From an uncultured virus (IMG/VR IMGVR_UViG_3300042274_000333) (lineage: Duplodnaviria > Heunggongvirae > Uroviricota > Caudoviricetes), in IMG/VR virus record IMGVR_UViG_3300042274_000333: a stretch of DNA of 20,000 nucleotides; one strand, given 5' to 3'. The notes under the pieces are model-generated. The model ran no database searches. It saw only the letters and a list, made by a program, of their open reading frames with translations, and was not told where the DNA came from. Numbering within the stretch: the first letter of the stretch is position 1; every line of letters starts with the position of its first letter. Shown piece by piece: positions 2,504 through 19,657 of the stretch. A program made the translations under genes and the position numbers.

Positions 2504-3766
2504 ATGAAAGAAATTGACATCGTAAAAAAACTACAAGAAAATGGATTTGAAGCCTACTTCGTAGGTGGATGCGTAAGAGATATGATTTTAAGGAAACCTC
2601 CAAAAGATATTGACGTAGTGACTTCCGCTACTCCTGAAGAGGTTTCAAAAATTTTTGAAACCTCTTTTTTTGTGGGAGAAAGTTTCGGCATATCTCTCGT
2701 AAGCGGGGTTGAGGTAGCTACTTTTAGAACTGAAAGTTCTTATGACGGTAGAAAGCCTAAAAGTGTTCATTTTAGTTCTTCTCTTGAAGAAGACTCTAAC
2801 AGAAGGGACTTTACTTTTAATGCATTATATTTTGACCCGATTAAAGATAAGATTATAGACCTTCATTATGGAATTGAAGATTTAGAAACTGGAACTGTAA
2901 GGTTTATTGGAAAAGCAGAAGATAGAATTCTAGAAGACCATTTAAGAATTCTACGTGCTATAAGATTTGCTTCTGTTTACGGATTTACTCTTGATAAAGA
3001 GGCTGTTTCTGCCATTAAAGAAAACAAACATTTACTTCATAGCATTAGTGCAGAAAGAATAACGGCAGAGATAAAGAAAACAGGAAATAAATTCCATAAA
3101 TTTGTAGAATTATTGTATGACTTACATGTTATAGATGAAATTTTTCCGTATGCTTCTGCTTTGAAAAATGTTCCACAGGATGCTGTTTGGCACCCAGAGG
3201 GAGATACATGGATTCATACTTTGAAGGTTATCAAAAACCTACAGACTGATGATTTTGTATTGAACTTGGCTGGACTTTTTCATGACTTTGGAAAGTTAAC
3301 TACCACTAAAAATGAAGATGGGAAAATAACTTCTAAAGGTCATGAAGCTGATTCTGTTATGCTTGCTCTTCCTATATTAAAAATGCTTAAAGTTTCCAAC
3401 AAGGAAGCAGAAGATATTCTATGGTTAGTTGAAAATCATATGAAAGTAAAGCATTTTCTTGAAATGAAAAAAAGTAAGAGAATAGCTTTAGCAAAAGACG
3501 AAAGAGCAGTAAAACTTGCAGAACTTTCTGTTGCAGACAGCATGACTGAAAAAGCATTAGAGAAGAACACTGAAATAAAAGATGCCATACTGGAACTTCG
3601 TAAGGATGAAAAAACCTTTGTAGCTCCTTTGGTAACTGGAAATGATTTGATAGCTTTGGGAATGAAGCCTGGAAAAGTATTCAAAATAATACTTGATGAT
3701 TTATTTGATAAACAGATAAACAAAGGCATTACGTCAAAAGAAGAATTGTTAGAATATGTATTATAA
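2504..3766 (+). CDS. cca: class II tRNA nucleotidyltransferase (CCA-adding enzyme) with HD domain
   Basis: VGGCVRD, DIDV, RRDFTFNAL, EDHLRILRAIRFA, HPEG...FHDFGK, VTGNDLIALGMKPG. Confidence 0.93.
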   Translation: MKEIDIVKKLQENGFEAYFVGGCVRDMILRKPPKDIDVVTSATPEEVSKIFETSFFVGESFGISLVSGVEVATFRTESSYDGRKPKSVHFSSSLEEDSNRRDFTFNALYFDPIKDKIIDLHYGIEDLETGTVRFIGKAEDRILEDHLRILRAIRFASVYGFTLDKEAVSAIKENKHLLHSISAERITAEIKKTGNKFHKFVELLYDLHVIDEIFPYASALKNVPQDAVWHPEGDTWIHTLKVIKNLQTDDFVLNLAGLFHDFGKLTTTKNEDGKITSKGHEADSVMLALPILKMLKVSNKEAEDILWLVENHMKVKHFLEMKKSKRIALAKDERAVKLAELSVADSMTEKALEKNTEIKDAILELRKDEKTFVAPLVTGNDLIALGMKPGKVFKIILDDLFDKQINKGITSKEELLEYVL

Positions 3767-3847: not shown

Positions 3848-3873
3848 CTGTAAAGATATATTTGGAGACTAAC

Positions 3874-4296
3874 ATGGAAACAAAAATTTGTGGAACTTGT
3901 AAAAAAGAATTGCCATTAACTTATTTTAGGAAAAATATAAGAAGAAAAGATGGATACCAAACAGATTGTATTAAGTGCAGAAAAGAATACAATAAAAATC
4001 ATTATATAAAAAATAAAGAACTTTATAAAAAAAGAGCAAGTAAAAGAACAAAAGAATTAAGGCTTTGGTTCAAAGAATACAAAAAAGAATTAAAATGTGA
4101 GATTTGCGGAGATTGCAGATTTTATGTTTTAGAATTTCATCATAAAGATCCTACAGATAAAAAAGAGTCAGTTTCACAATTGATAAGACTTTCTTCTAAA
4201 AAATATTTATTAGAGGAAATAGATAAATGTTCTGTTTTGTGTTCTAATTGTCATAAAGAACTGCACTATCTTGAAAATAATGGTGGCGTATGTTAA
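3874..4296 (+). CDS. HNH endonuclease (putative homing type)
   Basis: CGTC...CIKC, CEICG, LEFHH, LCSNCHKELH; ATG 3874 preferred over TTG 3862 because GGAG lies at 3864-3867. Confidence 0.88.
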   Translation: METKICGTCKKELPLTYFRKNIRRKDGYQTDCIKCRKEYNKNHYIKNKELYKKRASKRTKELRLWFKEYKKELKCEICGDCRFYVLEFHHKDPTDKKESVSQLIRLSSKKYLLEEIDKCSVLCSNCHKELHYLENNGGVC

Positions 4297-5936: not shown

Positions 5937-6312
5937 TATGTATAAAGAAAGATTTATATTTCATAAAGAAGTAAAAGAAATTAGAGAAAATTCTATTGAT
6001 GATGAACATTTTTTAGACAATCTTCAAGAATATTTTAATGATTATATAGATGAAGCACTTGAAAAAACCGGAAAAGCAGATGAATATTATAACGAAGGTT
6101 TTGAAGATGGAAAAGATGAAATGGAAGACCATATAGAAGAAGAGTGTCAAAACTCTTATAATGAAGGTCTTAAAGATGGAGTACGTAATTTTTTAAAAGG
6201 GTTTAAAAAGTATACAGATGAAATATCATCTTCTGTAGAAAAAGCTAGAAAATATCTTATAGAAACAGGCATATATACAGAAAATGGTGAAATAAGCGAA
6301 GAATATAAATAG
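5926..6312 (+). CDS. acidic hypothetical protein
   Basis: ORF with YNEGFEDG/YNEGLKDG repeats; start may be ATG 5938. Confidence 0.75.
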   Translation: MIINMYKERFIFHKEVKEIRENSIDDEHFLDNLQEYFNDYIDEALEKTGKADEYYNEGFEDGKDEMEDHIEEECQNSYNEGLKDGVRNFLKGFKKYTDEISSSVEKARKYLIETGIYTENGEISEEYK

Positions 6313-8711: not shown

Positions 8712-9026
8712 TTGTTCGGAAAATTCTTGGATAGTAAGAACTGGAAAGGAAGAAAGGAAAGAAGAAAAAAATACTATGATTCAAGGGCATTTGACTGCAC
8801 TTGTAGAAACCATGGAACTTGTGAATGGTGCGTAGAAAACAGAACTTTCTTTGATAAGAAACAAAGAGATTTAGCAGACCTTCAGTTGGATATTTCAGAA
8901 GAAGAACTGGATATGCTTGTTCATAAAGAAAAACTTCAAGAAGCCATTGATTTAGAAAGATGGGAAGAGGATGAATTTTATTATGAAGAAGCATATTGGA
9001 GAGATGCAAAAGGGAAATTTACGTGA
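8712..9026 (+). CDS. hypothetical protein, basic N-terminus, Cys/His motif
   Basis: TTG start with AAGGAG RBS; DCTCRNHGTCEWC. Confidence 0.75.
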   Translation: MFGKFLDSKNWKGRKERRKKYYDSRAFDCTCRNHGTCEWCVENRTFFDKKQRDLADLQLDISEEELDMLVHKEKLQEAIDLERWEEDEFYYEEAYWRDAKGKFT

Positions 9027-9547
9027 AACTATTAGAGGATGAAATCATAAAAGATTTAATAAACTCTGAACAATTTAATCCTTGGCAAGGAACTCCATTT
9101 GAAGGGTATAAGCAACTAAATAACGTTCAAAAGGGAAATTTTGGCGAAAAAGTTGTAAAGATTTTTATGAAAAATTCTGGACATATTATTGAAGAAAGAA
9201 AATCAATAACAGATGGATATGATGCTATTATAGACGGTATCAAAACAGAGATAAAATTTTCTTTGGCTCAAACAGATAACGTAAATAAATGTATAAAGCC
9301 AGATACTTTTGTCATAAACCACGTTTCTTATGGGAAGGATTGGGATAGACTTATCTTTTTAGGGATAAATCTTGACGAAAGTTTTTACTTTAAGTATTTT
9401 ACAAAGGATGAATTTATAAAGCATTTTAAAGATACTTACTTTAACACACAGCAAGGAGGATCTTCATCGTCAAATGATGATTATATGTGCTCTGGAAATA
9501 AATTAATAAGTATGCTACACGAAATGAAGGATATTTCTCAATGGTAG
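9023..9547 (+). CDS. PD-(D/E)XK restriction-endonuclease-like protein
   Basis: KGNFGE...GYDAIIDGIKTEIKFS; GTG 9023 overlaps the upstream TGA. Confidence 0.72.
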   Translation: MKLLEDEIIKDLINSEQFNPWQGTPFEGYKQLNNVQKGNFGEKVVKIFMKNSGHIIEERKSITDGYDAIIDGIKTEIKFSLAQTDNVNKCIKPDTFVINHVSYGKDWDRLIFLGINLDESFYFKYFTKDEFIKHFKDTYFNTQQGGSSSSNDDYMCSGNKLISMLHEMKDISQW

Positions 9548-11346: not shown

Positions 11347-11362
11347 AAAGTATAAGTTTTTT

Positions 11363-11914
11363 GGAATCATTAAATGTTATACCCAAGTGTATGAAGGCTA
11401 ACAACCTTGCTTGGACTGTCTTGAATGCTTTGGTGAGTTATCACGGATACGTGCTGACTTAACCAACTGTCAAAATCGTAAGATTAGATGGATAAACCTC
11501 AAAAAGGTTAAAGCAAGAGACAGGTGCTTGAAAATACGCTTGAAAAGGTCATTATGCTGACCCCTTCGCAATAGGCGATACGCTAGCCATCCAGTAAGTC
11601 GGGCTTGACAACTTTGATACTGCTGGAAAAGTCAAAAGCAAGAAGGGACTGTGGTTGAAACAGAGAAATCTGTGTATAAGTTGTGCATAATCGTAAAGTA
11701 GTCCAATTCCACAGGTTCTTAAACATATTGGATGATTAACAACCTGAAAGTCGGATGAAATTTGTGGGTAGCCATTCCCACCTTGAGTTCGGGAGAAATC
11801 CCCTTTAGAAATGCTAAGGAGTAATTACCCATAGCACAGGTTCTATCGTCAAGTAACCTAATATTCAAGAAGTATTGGATAGTAAGATGAAGGTCTATAA
11901 TTTTTATTGGTTCC
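11363..11914 (+). ncRNA. large (~550 nt) structured RNA, ROOL/GOLLD-class candidate
   Basis: No ORF in the track, own promoter, ends pair (GGAATCA/TGGTTCC) before a U tract, many internal hairpins, located in a tRNA array. Confidence 0.6.
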
Positions 11915-11922
11915 TTTTTTAT

Positions 11923-11994
11923 GGCGATGAAACCAAATGGCTAGGTGCAACTCTCATAAGGTTGATTTAGTTGGTTCAATTCCAACCATCGTCA
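11923..11994 (+). tRNA. tRNA-CAT (elongator Met or Ile2)
   Basis: CAACT-CTCATAA-GGTTG; acceptor GGCGATG/CATCGTC. Confidence 0.88.
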
Positions 11995-13179: not shown

Positions 13180-13208
13180 TTGCTAAAAAACTAAAAAAAT
13201 TGTATAAT
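13180..13208 (+). promoter_or_regulatory. sigma70-type promoter
   Basis: TTGCTA-17-TATAAT, same spacer as the promoter family. Confidence 0.8.
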
Positions 13209-13256: not shown

Positions 13257-13354
13257 AAAGGAGGATAAGCCCATGAAGTAGTTTAGATTATCATTACCTC
13301 CATAAGTATAGTCGGTTTCTTAAGAAAAAACTGACAACAACATACTTATAGGAG
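13257..13354 (+). promoter_or_regulatory. leader mini-ORF with amber codon and RBS-sequestering hairpin (putative translational attenuator)
   Basis: AAAGGAGG; ATG AAG TAG TTT AGA TTA TCA TTA CCT CCA TAA (13273-13305); CTCC-ATAAGTAT pairs with ATACTTAT-A-GGAG (13342-13354). Confidence 0.75.
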
Positions 13355-13363
13355 AAAAGTAAA

Positions 13364-13714
13364 ATGGAAAAGATTTTTGATACGATTGAAGATTATAGAA
13401 ATGTGGTTTCTATGATGAAAGACTATTACAAAGAACTCTCTGCAAACATAAGAGAGGAAAAAGTAAAATACAAGAATTTACTCAGGGGAAGAGTATACCC
13501 TGACTATATGAATGTAAAATATCATCTTGATGATAACAGAAGAAATGCTAGGATTTTTAATGTAGTATATTCTATATTAAAAGGAAAATCGTATAAGCAG
13601 ATTGAACCCAAGATACGGGAGAAAAATGAGTTATACGGCGGTGAAATAAGAAAATTTTGTGAAAAATGGAATTTGCCTTCTGATCCTTTCGTAAAGGAGG
13701 TAAATAATGCTTAA
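13364..13714 (+). CDS. hypothetical protein translationally coupled to pth2
   Basis: 116 aa, AGGAG RBS, overlaps the pth2 start. Confidence 0.85.
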   Translation: MEKIFDTIEDYRNVVSMMKDYYKELSANIREEKVKYKNLLRGRVYPDYMNVKYHLDDNRRNARIFNVVYSILKGKSYKQIEPKIREKNELYGGEIRKFCEKWNLPSDPFVKEVNNA

Positions 13715-14090
13715 ACAGTATTTTTTGGTAAGGAAAGACTTGGGAATGTCAAAAGGGAGGATTGCTTCTCAAGTGGCGCACAGCGCTATTATGTGTCTTT
13801 TATCAAGTGGAGAGTGGAACGACAAAACAGTAACCTTCTCCCACTTACCGGATGCTATTCTTAATGATTTAAAGAAAGGATAGCCATTTACAAAAGTAGT
13901 TCTTTCAGCAAACTCGGAAACTGATTTTTATAATGTAGTAGAAAGTGTTAAGAAAACATCATTACCGTTTTATGTAATGATAGACAACGGATTCTATGAC
14001 AGCAATGGCATAGAAAAGGAAGAAGCAACTTGCTTGGCAATAGGTCCTTGCGAAGGGCTTCGGGAACTTGAAAGGTTTAGACTTTTGTGA
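13707..14090 (+). CDS. pth2: peptidyl-tRNA hydrolase Pth2 with in-frame TAG at codon 59 (13881-13883)
   Basis: MLKQYFLVRKDLGMSKGRIASQVAHSA...KKG*PFTKVVL...MIDNG...TCLAIGP...FRLL; AAGGAGG RBS; missed by the ORF track. Confidence 0.88.
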
Positions 14091-14095
14091 TTTTT

Positions 14096-14135
14096 GACTG
14101 GGAGGGTGCCAAACATCTTCCCAGTCCTTTTTTGA
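14096..14135 (+). terminator. intrinsic terminator after pth2
   Basis: GACTGGGAGGGTG/CATCTTCCCAGTC hairpin followed by a T tract. Confidence 0.7.
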
Positions 14136-14195
14136 CTTTGCCCCACGAAAGTGGGATGACGGTTTCGCTGTGCCAGCCTATGCAAAACAGTGGGT

Positions 14196-14408
14196 AGAGA
14201 AGTGGTGAAAAATACGGGAGTTATGTTGTCGGTCGCTGCAGAGGCGGTGACTTTATTCATAGCTCCAGTTGGCAGACACCCATATCTGTCGCCAGCTAGG
14301 CGCTGGAGAAGACGTAGAGCAAAATCAGAGAGTTAAGTGTACATAATACTCTCTTTCGTGCACGATAAGAGTCAGGCATGAATGTAGGTTCAAATCCTAC
14401 CTTCTCTA
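14196..14408 (+). ncRNA. tRNA-like RNA with large insertions (213 nt)
   Basis: Acceptor AGAGAAG/CTTCTCT-A, T arm GTAGG-TTCAAAT-CCTAC, D arm TGGTGAA...GGCAGACAC split by hairpin GGAGTTATG/CATAGCTCC. Confidence 0.7.
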
Positions 14409-14438
14409 AAAAGAATATTATGTAAAGAGGTTCGTTTT

Positions 14439-14711
14439 ATGAAAGTAGAAGAAGTATTAAGTTCTTTTAAACAATATTTTAGAAAAAATACTGTTCGTTT
14501 CAGAGAAAATCAAGAAGTAACTGCCTCTATTGGAAGGTTGTTAATTGACTTTAACAAGGAAAGGATGCTAATTATAGATGATAATTCTTTATCTTCTATA
14601 AAATATGAAGATATAGAAAGTATTGCTTTCTATGCTGGAGACGGATGGGATTATCCTAACGATATTAAAATAATTATTGACAAAGACAATTATATAAAAA
14701 TACATGTATAA
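14439..14711 (+). CDS. hypothetical protein
   Basis: 90 aa, GAGG RBS. Confidence 0.75.
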   Translation: MKVEEVLSSFKQYFRKNTVRFRENQEVTASIGRLLIDFNKERMLIIDDNSLSSIKYEDIESIAFYAGDGWDYPNDIKIIIDKDNYIKIHV

Positions 14712-14717
14712 TAGAAT

Positions 14718-14788
14718 GGGTTTGTGGTGTAACGGTAGCACAGAAAACTCTAAATTTTCTGGTGAGGGTTCAATTCCCTTCTTTCCCA
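14718..14788 (+). tRNA. amber suppressor tRNA (anticodon CTA)
   Basis: GAAAA-CTCTAAA-TTTTC; D arm GTGT-AACGGTA-GCAC; T arm GAGGG-TTCAATT-CCCTT; acceptor GGGTTTG/CTTTCCC has three U-U mismatches. Confidence 0.85.
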
Positions 14789-14800
14789 AAGGATATAAAA

Positions 14801-16497: not shown

Positions 16498-16580
16498 GGG
16501 CGATTAAGCAATGGTAGCGTTAGTGTAGTAAAACCCACAGTGGAGCCACTAAAATAAGGGTTCAATTCCCTTATCGTCCA
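16498..16580 (+). ncRNA. tRNA-like RNA with 21-nt anticodon loop and Ala-type acceptor
   Basis: GGGCGAT/ATCGTCC-A (G3:U70), stem TAGTG/CACTA, T arm AAGGG-TTCAATT-CCCTT. Confidence 0.7.
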
Positions 16581-16582
16581 AC

Positions 16583-16678
16583 GGTGTCGTAGAGAAATTG
16601 GCAAACTCCGCAGACGACCAAGAGAGTGCAGGCATCGTCTGCAATCCTGCTATGTAGGTTCGAATCCTACCGACACCA
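16583..16678 (+). ncRNA. tRNA-like RNA with 8-bp anticodon stem and 17-nt loop
   Basis: GGTGTCG/CGACACC-A, GCAGACGA/TCGTCTGC, T arm GTAGG-TTCGAAT-CCTAC. Confidence 0.72.
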
Positions 16679-16730: not shown

Positions 16731-16982
16731 TTTTAATTTTAACTTATGTAGATAAAAAACGTTAGCAACGAAAAAGCATCTACTAAAGTATTATATGCGC
16801 TTACCCCAGTAGCTCTGGTAAGTAGCGCTAGTGCTGGCAAAGACTGCGAATCTAGTCAGCGAGCAACAACAAAGGCTTTGTCTTCGCAGGACAAAAATGG
16901 CGTAACCTCAAGTGAGAGGGGGAATCGGGATAATAAAGCCTTCCGATGCAAGGCGTTGTAAATGTTGTTGTCTTTTTATTTT

Positions 16983-17123: not shown

Positions 17124-17197
17124 CGCAGGGTGGACTGGAGAGGCTCCAGCTCGGTCTCATAAGCCGAATCACGAGGGTTCGACTCCCTCCTCTGCTA
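17124..17197 (+). tRNA. initiator-type tRNA-Met(CAT)
   Basis: C1xU72 mismatch; TCGGT-CTCATAA-GCCGA. Confidence 0.88.
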
Positions 17198-19441: not shown

Positions 19442-19657
19442 ATGGCAAGTGAATTTGATGCTACTAATGCCGTTTGGGGAGAAGACCTCCAAGACATATT
19501 TTTTGAAGAGCCATATGTATATATGGATAATAGAATAACTCTCATGTTTGACGAAAAGGGAGAGGCATCTTTGTTGATGCCTATATATTATAATACACCT
19601 TTAGAAATTATACTTGAGAGCTTAAAAGAGATAGAAGAATATTTTTCTTCTTTATAG
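19442..19657 (+). CDS. hypothetical protein
   Basis: 71 aa, AGGAG RBS. Confidence 0.75.
   Translation: MASEFDATNAVWGEDLQDIFFEEPYVYMDNRITLMFDEKGEASLLMPIYYNTPLEIILESLKEIEEYFSSL

Follow-up and report, generated by a model that had tools for sequence, protein, structure and literature searches.

Phages that read the stop codon TAG as glutamine (Gln) with suppressor transfer RNAs (tRNAs) of their own are established (bioRxiv 10.1101/2021.08.26.457843, PMC9523058, PMC13037316), and a model for the origin of such recoding holds that a low-GC (guanine plus cytosine), standard-code phage acquires a suppressor tRNA, after which in-frame stops appear (bioRxiv 10.1101/2021.08.26.457843). The example put forward for the step before in-frame stops is the Agate phage, whose standard-code genome carries a TGA suppressor tRNA (bioRxiv 10.1101/2021.08.26.457843). 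Genes for peptidyl-tRNA hydrolase 2 (Pth2) have in turn been described in the tRNA and RNA-repair islands of jumbo phages (PMC7824862). Here, we analyze a stretch of 20,000 nucleotides (nt) from an uncultured virus of the Caudoviricetes (IMG/VR record IMGVR_UViG_3300042274_000333; the whole stretch is hereafter called the window), in which a pth2 gene carries a single in-frame TAG and is followed by a tRNA with the anticodon CUA, the amber suppressor type. We tentatively read the TAG as a suppressor-dependent, tolerated stop in a standard-code phage, in other words as incipient recoding, and assign this reading a probability of roughly 0.45.

The pth2 gene comprises 127 codons at positions 13707-14090, on the plus strand like the other features of the locus given below. 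Its open reading frame (ORF) under the standard code (13707-13883) halts at a TAG at codon 59 (13881-13883); if this codon is read through, the same frame continues to a TGA at 14088-14090 and encodes 127 amino acids. A single match to the Pfam family PTH2 (PF01981), with an E-value of 5.7e-19 and a score of 68.9 bits where the gathering cut-off is 23, crosses the TAG by covering residues 2-116 and profile positions 1-101 of 115, and the protein resembles five solved Pth2 sequences with E-values from 2.5e-9 to 5e-4. The gene thus belongs to the PTH2 family, departing from the uninterrupted frame of its members by this one TAG and being otherwise open to codon 127, with 68 codons still open behind the stop. 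No insertions or deletions within pth2 are listed in strains about 4% and about 7% diverged. Termination at codon 59 leaves a 58-amino-acid product without more than half of the PTH2 domain. The initial annotation of the window had pointed out this interrupted gene, the CUA tRNA and a leader ORF with TAG as its third codon, and all three are borne out. It had further claimed that full-length Pth2 needs readthrough of the UAG, which stands insofar as readthrough is the only route to the complete protein and a matching tRNA is encoded, and is not supported insofar as the arrangement was taken for a designed sensor of termination.

An assembly error, raised early on as a possible source of the TAG, is excluded by three sets of records. 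The IMG/VR record is identical and carries the same TAG; a contig from an independent sequencing run (X7 record 11) spans 13561-14267 with 0 differences; and in the protein cluster at 90% identity the TAG allele is found in nine of 11 contigs. There it occurs as three sequence variants of 58 amino acids, each ending right before the TAG: P0007 equals the window sequence and is present on six contigs (the longest of 136,665 bp), P0008 has two substitutions and is present on two contigs, and P0009 is present on one. A 37-amino-acid C-terminal piece has also been called on contigs with the 58-amino-acid forms.

The nearest full-length homologues all have Gln at codon 59 (five of five). Among them, P0011 differs from the window protein at three residues, all downstream of codon 59, P0001 is 91% identical, and P0002-P0004, at 54-61% identity, have GQPFTK at the site. 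The TAG aligns with the Gln of this GQP motif, and three solved archaeal Pth2 structures have the Gln of a GQ motif at the same place. Among phage Pth2 proteins of greater distance, the site is variable (G-x-FTK). Of 86 long Pth2 matches from viral and metagenome loci elsewhere, none has an in-frame stop, and inspection by eye of 24 short or suppressor-linked Pth2 loci revealed no lone TAG. Since all five nearest homologues have Gln and none of the 86 loci has an in-frame stop, the TAG is a genuine and common but young and polymorphic allele at a Gln codon of one lineage, not a conserved recoding site. As a side observation, in five of the 24 inspected loci (L079, L063, L049, L062 and L072) the frame is lost or meets a TGA or TAA midway, which may reflect frameshifts, introns or sequencing errors.

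The matching tRNA lies at 14717-14789 (ARAGORN; Rfam 14718-14788, 56.2 bits) and has a normal anticodon loop of 7 nt, CU-CUA-AA. We propose that the Gln59 codon of the accessory gene pth2 became TAG in one widespread sublineage, most simply through a CAG-to-TAG transition. Full-length Pth2 in the TAG lineage would then require that the suppressor tRNA encoded by the phage place an amino acid at the UAG, with Gln as the leading candidate. The nonsense change would have been made tolerable by a resident suppressor, and would represent the first in-frame stop on the route on which the suppressor comes first and in-frame stops later; as a side effect, Pth2 output would be tied to expression of the tRNA. 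We favor this reading because the stop matches a tRNA of the phage, the Gln site is one transition away (TAG from a Gln codon makes up 3-10% of the nonsense single-base mutational paths in pth2), the allele is common and the 68 downstream codons are intact. The gene, its TAG, the polymorphism of the site, the tRNA and the lack of wider recoding in 59.9 kb are observed, whereas charging of the tRNA, its reading of the pth2 UAG and the identity of the inserted residue are inferred.

The closeness of pth2 to this tRNA is by itself not special, because pth2 usually sits in phage tRNA islands: tRNAs occur within 10 kilobases (kb) in 33 of 79 other phage pth2 loci, and seven of the 79 include a stop-anticodon tRNA, CUA in three of them. 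What is notable is that an in-frame TAG and a CUA tRNA occur together. Elsewhere, long CUA tRNAs (92-96 nt) were seen near intact or disrupted pth2 genes at L078, L079 and L085.

Regarding the residue inserted, the Gln identity elements of tRNAs are a weak 1:72 pair, G73, G2:C71, G3:C70, G10 and U35. The CUA tRNA has G2:C71, G3:C70, G10 and U35, with G1-C72 and A73 instead of U1-A72 and G73. When the acceptor stem is left aside, its nearest core in the phage's own genome is tRNA-Gln(UUG), with 42 of 56 positions identical without gaps, a near-identical D-arm and the same variable loop. ARAGORN labels the gene as pyrrolysine tRNA (tRNA-Pyl), a label that rests on the anticodon alone. The tRNA-Pyl architecture consists of a short D-loop without GG, a 3-nt variable loop and a single base between the acceptor and D stems, and goes with pyl genes; the CUA tRNA has a 7-nt D-loop with GG, an ordinary T-loop of TTCAATT and two bases (T, G) between the acceptor and D stems. 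It therefore lacks that architecture, and no search for pyl genes was made.

Outside pth2, the visible part of the phage uses the standard code. For this analysis, the window was joined with an overlapping 46,887-base IMG/VR record, one end of which is identical to the last 6,988 bases of the window, and ORFs were listed with TAG as a sense codon across the resulting 59.9 kb. The only gene with a homology-supported frame split by TAG is pth2. In-frame TAGs are absent from the genes for the tail sheath (709 amino acids), major head protein (577), prohead protease (212), portal (672) and large terminase (913). Moreover, TAG is the terminator of an HNH endonuclease gene (1850-2266) and of the phrog_6927 gene (8996-9547), at the very point where the profile of each ends, and the ORFs named in the initial annotation as ending normally at TAG (stops at 2264-2266, 6310-6312 and 19655-19657) do so.

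Other candidates for an in-frame TAG did not hold up. The TAG within 23943-24539 of the merged sequence separates two genes in the same frame: an HNH-like match covers only the part before the TAG, and a Shine-Dalgarno (SD) sequence and an ATG open an ORF of 87 amino acids 3' of it. The remaining candidates overlap tRNAs or longer ORFs. An ATG-TAG followed by 70 stop-free codons (16746-16961) has no other start codon, is rich in Ser, Ala, Thr and Lys, has a fold z-score of -2.2 and is probably non-coding.

Several observations weigh against suppression of the pth2 stop, and the alternatives to our reading draw on them in different ways. A first group concerns the use of TAG elsewhere. TAG terminates seven of 46 plus-strand ORFs of at least 100 amino acids and is thus not depleted, so strong suppression would be costly, and the step of the published model in which the stop first becomes rare is not seen. 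Furthermore, the extensions that would follow these TAGs are 1 to 99 codons long (median about 13) and not shorter than expected for the composition, and therefore give no sign of adaptation to readthrough. The examined DNA is also only part of a genome: the 46.9-kb record is 21% complete according to CheckV, and the 59.9 kb represent about a quarter to two fifths of the whole, the longest contigs that hold this locus being about 137 kb.

This last point is compatible with the idea that the virus is an ordinary code-15 phage (TAG to Gln) in which pth2 is one of many recoded genes, the rest lying outside the 59.9 kb. The CUA tRNA and a TAG at a Gln position, although at a single site, are what such a phage would show, and recoded phages are described as keeping their early and replication genes in the standard code (bioRxiv 10.1101/2021.08.26.457843). 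In the known cases covered by that account, structural genes are the most recoded (bioRxiv 10.1101/2021.08.26.457843), whereas those examined here hold no TAG. Many in-frame TAGs and a rarity of TAG as terminator, the other marks of code 15, are not found: TAG ends homology-checked genes as well as the long ORFs just counted, and a strain with only three residue differences in Pth2 has a sense codon at the site. We give an ordinary code-15 genome only a slim chance.

A second group of observations against suppression concerns the tRNA. Its acceptor stem consists of G1-C72, G2-C71, G3-C70, the mismatches U4.U69, U5.U68 and U6.U67, and G7-C66, followed by A73. Three consecutive acceptor-stem mismatches occur in no other of the 25 tRNAs that Rfam finds in the window, 21 of which are free of mismatches there, with a single mismatch in one and two mismatches in each of two others. 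Moreover, the minimum-free-energy structure of the tRNA folded alone is not a cloverleaf, and the molecule may be a weak or damaged suppressor. Among 187 distinct tRNAs from other phage loci, its nearest cores are those of tRNA-Lys(CUU) at 75.4% and tRNA-Trp(CCA) at 75%, which are as close as the phage's own tRNA-Gln(UUG) and leave the isotype ambiguous, and just one of the top 25 is a tRNA-Gln, so that an origin from tRNA-Gln is weakly supported by the two comparisons together. Conservation counts against damage, however: X13 and X18 each have a single base difference in the tRNA stretch, and strain X9 has six differences over 14338-14797 versus 73 over 13300-14364, making the tRNA gene better conserved than its surroundings in diverged strains.

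A third observation concerns the coding sequence behind the stop. Compared with the two closest relatives, the window's Pth2 protein differs at two of 116 compared positions before the TAG and at 12 of 136 after it (Fisher p 0.024), and this excess would fit relaxed constraint behind a real stop. Like the acceptor mismatches, it is an argument for regarding pth2 as a plain pseudogene, an accessory gene on its way out that has lost its function to a recent nonsense mutation in one sublineage, the CUA tRNA being unrelated or too defective to rescue it. The closest relatives P0011 and P0001 are without the TAG, pth2 is accessory, being limited to some large phages in our scans as in the literature (PMC7824862), and pth2 and stop-anticodon tRNAs co-occur anyway, as the seven of 79 loci illustrate. 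The location of the stop speaks for suppression instead, as a random nonsense mutation would seldom give TAG at a Gln codon, given the small share of such paths, and this stop matches the phage's own tRNA. The allele has also spread through nine contigs and three variants without acquiring a second lesion. The downstream frame remains open, the differences behind the TAG are few and mostly conservative (N/D at 76, I/V at 102), and relative to the homologues at 54-61% identity both halves of pth2 differ equally. With the conservation of the tRNA gene added, we regard a pseudogene as rather unlikely, though a serious competitor of the suppressor-tolerated stop.

Upstream of pth2, the leader offers a further interpretation of the two amber codons. 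It contains AAGGAGG (13258-13264), 8 nt before the start of a two-codon mini-ORF, ATG AAG TAG (13273-13281); with the TAG read through, this mini-ORF would continue to a TAA at 13303-13305 and encode 10 amino acids. A hairpin at 13298-13354 follows, whose 3' arm holds the GGAG (13351-13354) that is the SD of the next gene, orf116 (13364-13714; 116 amino acids). The hairpin is stable (-17.7 kcal/mol; z -4.5; none of 200 shuffles as stable), includes a perfect 8-nt inverted repeat (13302-13309 / 13342-13349) and masks the orf116 SD, whose GGAG is base-paired with a CUCC. The stop of orf116 overlaps the start of pth2 (ATG 13707), and an intrinsic terminator with a 13-bp stem (14096-14126) and a T run lies 3' of pth2 (14096-14133). 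Upstream of the leader is a promoter-like TTGCTA-17-TATAAT (13180-13208) with 10 of 12 consensus matches; the number of such sites in the region is at the level of shuffled sequence (eight found, 7.8 expected), and this one is therefore only a candidate. The promoter-like site before and the terminator after suggest that leader, orf116 and pth2 form one unit. A contig of the related strain X18 from an RNA library covers 13363-14371 at a depth of 123; it may stem from carried-over DNA, and where it begins and stops does not mark the ends of a transcript, so it demonstrates neither transcription nor a start site.

With regard to orf116 itself, neither its product nor a 526-amino-acid protein has a usable match in Pfam, PHROGs or Atlas. 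The gene contains a hypervariable patch (13471-13553), where 28 differences in 83 nt are listed for X9 and the flanks are far more conserved. X9 also lacks one base of orf116 at 13488 and has an extra one behind 13494, two changes that together restore the frame.

On this geometry, the leader could be an amber-suppression-sensing translational attenuator. As in leader-peptide attenuation of the ermC/cat type, an SD is sequestered in a hairpin. The mini-ORF as read in the standard code ends at 13281, 17 nt 5' of the hairpin, and the 5' arm would be reached only through TAG readthrough; ribosomes that read through would terminate within this arm and turn on orf116 and pth2. We consider such an attenuator improbable, and hold the same low expectation for its corollary that the operon would be on only once the suppressor tRNA is active, with the second UAG in pth2 acting as a further threshold. 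If the attenuator were true, peptidyl-tRNA recycling capacity would be matched to the extra ribosome stalling caused by stop-codon readthrough.

The wider idea of an evolved, amber-suppression-gated operon, in which the mini-ORF TAG and the pth2 TAG are two checkpoints and readthrough opens orf116 together with the coupled pth2, draws on the strong SD at an 8-nt distance, the hairpin in whose 5' arm the readthrough frame ends, the overlap of orf116 and pth2 at ATG/TAA and the terminator. The hairpin region also has one difference among those listed for X9 (about 7% diverged) in the 64 nt of 13300-13363, versus 39 in the 259 nt of 13384-13642. Other evidence points away from such gating. The pth2 TAG is not conserved, Gln being present in all five nearest homologues. 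The mini-ORF is at chance level: the 59.9 kb contain about six ORFs that have an SD and a start but no more than three codons, and a long gene starts at only two of the seven plus-strand AAGGAGG sites. A hairpin farther upstream, of which the mini-ORF would be part, lacks significance (z -1.1), the X18 contig starts at 13363 with the leader outside (a weak point, contig ends not being transcript ends), and Pth2 has no known action on termination, so no feedback would result. We thus doubt strongly that the operon is gated. The initial annotation had seen in these parts a double-lock sensor of termination efficiency, a proposal undermined by a TAG that is young and polymorphic and by a leader ORF that is statistically unremarkable. 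The comparison with homologues that it had suggested also went against the sensor, given the Gln codons in all five and the absence of in-frame stops from the 86 other loci.

The mini-ORF also resembles a minigene of phage lambda. In this explanation, the SD and two-codon ORF would provoke drop-off of fMet-Lys-tRNA and so sequester the tRNA-Lys of the host, whereas Pth2 and tRNA-Lys would be provided by phage genes. The other hallmark of bar-type minigenes is toxicity in Pth-deficient cells through a build-up of peptidyl-tRNA. The layout of start codon, one sense codon and stop matches that described for lambda bar (PMC8012679), the mini-ORF lies directly 5' of the pth2 operon, and tRNA-Lys(UUU) and tRNA-Lys(CUU) are both phage-encoded (ARAGORN). 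The chance-level occurrence of the mini-ORF speaks against this, as does the stop in this lineage's pth2, which would weaken the protection that the scheme requires, and we find it very hard to credit.

Between pth2 and the CUA tRNA, two further features lie on the plus strand. A GC-rich structured RNA with a tRNA-like 3' end, composed of a T-arm and an acceptor-like strand, is predicted at 14135-14408 from fold and GC content, which is 0.46-0.52 compared with about 0.3 in the flanks; the fold z-score for 14095-14415 is -7.1. A sub-threshold Rfam tRNA match (14327-14408, 22.1 bits) coincides with its 3' end. No Rfam family matches the RNA at the gathering or E-value threshold, no relatives were found, and ARAGORN finds no transfer-messenger RNA. 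An ORF of 90 amino acids (14439-14711), included in the Pfam and PHROG scans, fills the space between this RNA and the tRNA.

The wider locus is the tRNA and RNA-repair island of a myovirus that is large, low in GC (33%) and distantly T4-like. This assignment follows from a major head protein about 30% identical to its T4-like counterparts and from the wastewater, digester and bioreactor metagenomes whose sequencing runs contain this stretch. ARAGORN predicts 23 tRNA genes in the window, on the plus strand, and Rfam 25 tRNAs and a ROOL RNA at 11359-11916. Among them lie genes for a CCA-adding enzyme (2504-3766), HD and metallo-phosphoesterases, DNA methyltransferases and two HNH endonucleases. 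Past the window end, the record encodes an RtcB-like ligase, two tRNA-Gln genes, the tail sheath, the major head protein, the prohead protease, the portal and the large terminase. The RtcB-like RNA ligase gene (phrog_850, E 4e-137) and the tandem tRNA-Gln(UUG) and tRNA-Gln(CUG), noted at L001 7954-9387, lie 3-4 kb beyond the window end; the CCA-adding enzyme, Pth2 and these genes make up a full set for tRNA repair. Closer relatives with DNA context were sought in viral, metagenome and genome contigs and in GenBank phages, using the Pth2 protein and alignment, the DNA, a degenerate tRNA pattern and the CCA-adding enzyme as queries; none beyond 33-39% identity was found except the overlapping record (G001).

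Some details of the island stand apart from the question of the TAG. The ROOL RNA is full-length (RF03087, 236 bits, model positions 1-574 of 574) and sits inside the tRNA array, with a tRNA at 11923-11994 directly after it. This tRNA and two others (16498-16580 and 16583-16678) were found by Rfam only and missed by ARAGORN; the latter two are long (83 and 96 nt) and may hold a long variable arm or an insert. A tRNA-Met(CAT) at 17124-17197 has a low Rfam score (33.7 bits) and a mismatched first acceptor pair (C1.U72), and such a mismatch is a feature of bacterial initiator tRNAs. The HNH endonuclease genes at 1850-2266 and 3862-4296 are paralogues (both phrog_2255) located between tRNA genes, and the TAG that ends the former overlaps the start of a tRNA-Pro at 2257.

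Stop-codon recoding in phages is known mainly from extensively recoded genomes, and ideas about its onset derive from comparisons. In the present case, a population of a standard-code phage combines a suppressor tRNA with a single Gln/TAG polymorphism among near-identical strains, while TAG still serves as a terminator. If the tRNA is active, the locus would be a natural snapshot of a first in-frame stop, in which the cost of early recoding (readthrough of normal TAG stops) and its benefit (tolerance of nonsense changes) could be measured directly. If it is inactive, pth2 is an ordinary young pseudogene. The case also calls for caution in annotation, in that a pth2 found split beside a CUA tRNA is not necessarily dead.

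Among described systems, the laboratory amber suppressors supE of Escherichia coli and psu of phage T4 are tRNA-Gln derivatives with a CUA anticodon that restore genes carrying Gln-to-amber mutations. The present case differs in being natural, from a wild phage population, and in a tRNA-Gln ancestry that the cores only faintly indicate. The initial annotation had likened the locus to the frameshift autoregulation of release factor 2 (RF2, prfB), with which it shares an in-frame stop that ties synthesis of a translation factor to the reading of that stop. The parallel fails beyond this point: the substrate of Pth2 is peptidyl-tRNA that has left the ribosome, the enzyme does not recognise stop codons, no feedback arises, no frameshift is involved and the site is not conserved. 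The bar minigenes of lambda, the only known link of two-codon ORFs to Pth in the sources at hand, share the SD, start codon, single sense codon and stop as well as the functional tie to Pth (PMC8012679), but their codons are AUA-UAA rather than AAG-TAG, and the occurrence here is at chance level. The described jumbo-phage islands likewise place a PTH2-family gene beside tRNA genes, a CCA-adding enzyme, an RtcB-like ligase and phosphoesterases (PMC7824862); the in-frame stop sets the present pth2 apart from the 86 other Pth2 loci. Our literature searches retrieved no paper in which a phage pth2 interrupted by an in-frame stop is connected with a suppressor tRNA. The published suppressor-first model already covers the pattern, which the initial annotation had not recognised as a described system.

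The code-15 phages (crAss-like, Lak and jumbo) are similar to this phage in their low GC content, a host environment with the standard code, their tRNA-CUA, TAGs where homologues have Gln and a translation that depends on a phage tRNA. They are unlike it in the extent of recoding, as the present phage has one in-frame TAG in 59.9 kb, structural genes without recoding and an undepleted TAG terminator, and also in that its site is polymorphic among near-identical strains and its gene, located in the tRNA island, encodes a translation-recycling enzyme rather than a late or lysis protein. The Agate phage has a TGA suppressor and, in the portions of the account consulted, no reported in-frame stop, compared with a TAG suppressor and one in-frame stop here. 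The present case would fit the published path as its next step, departing from it in that TAG is undepleted and that the first recoded gene would be a tRNA-recycling enzyme.

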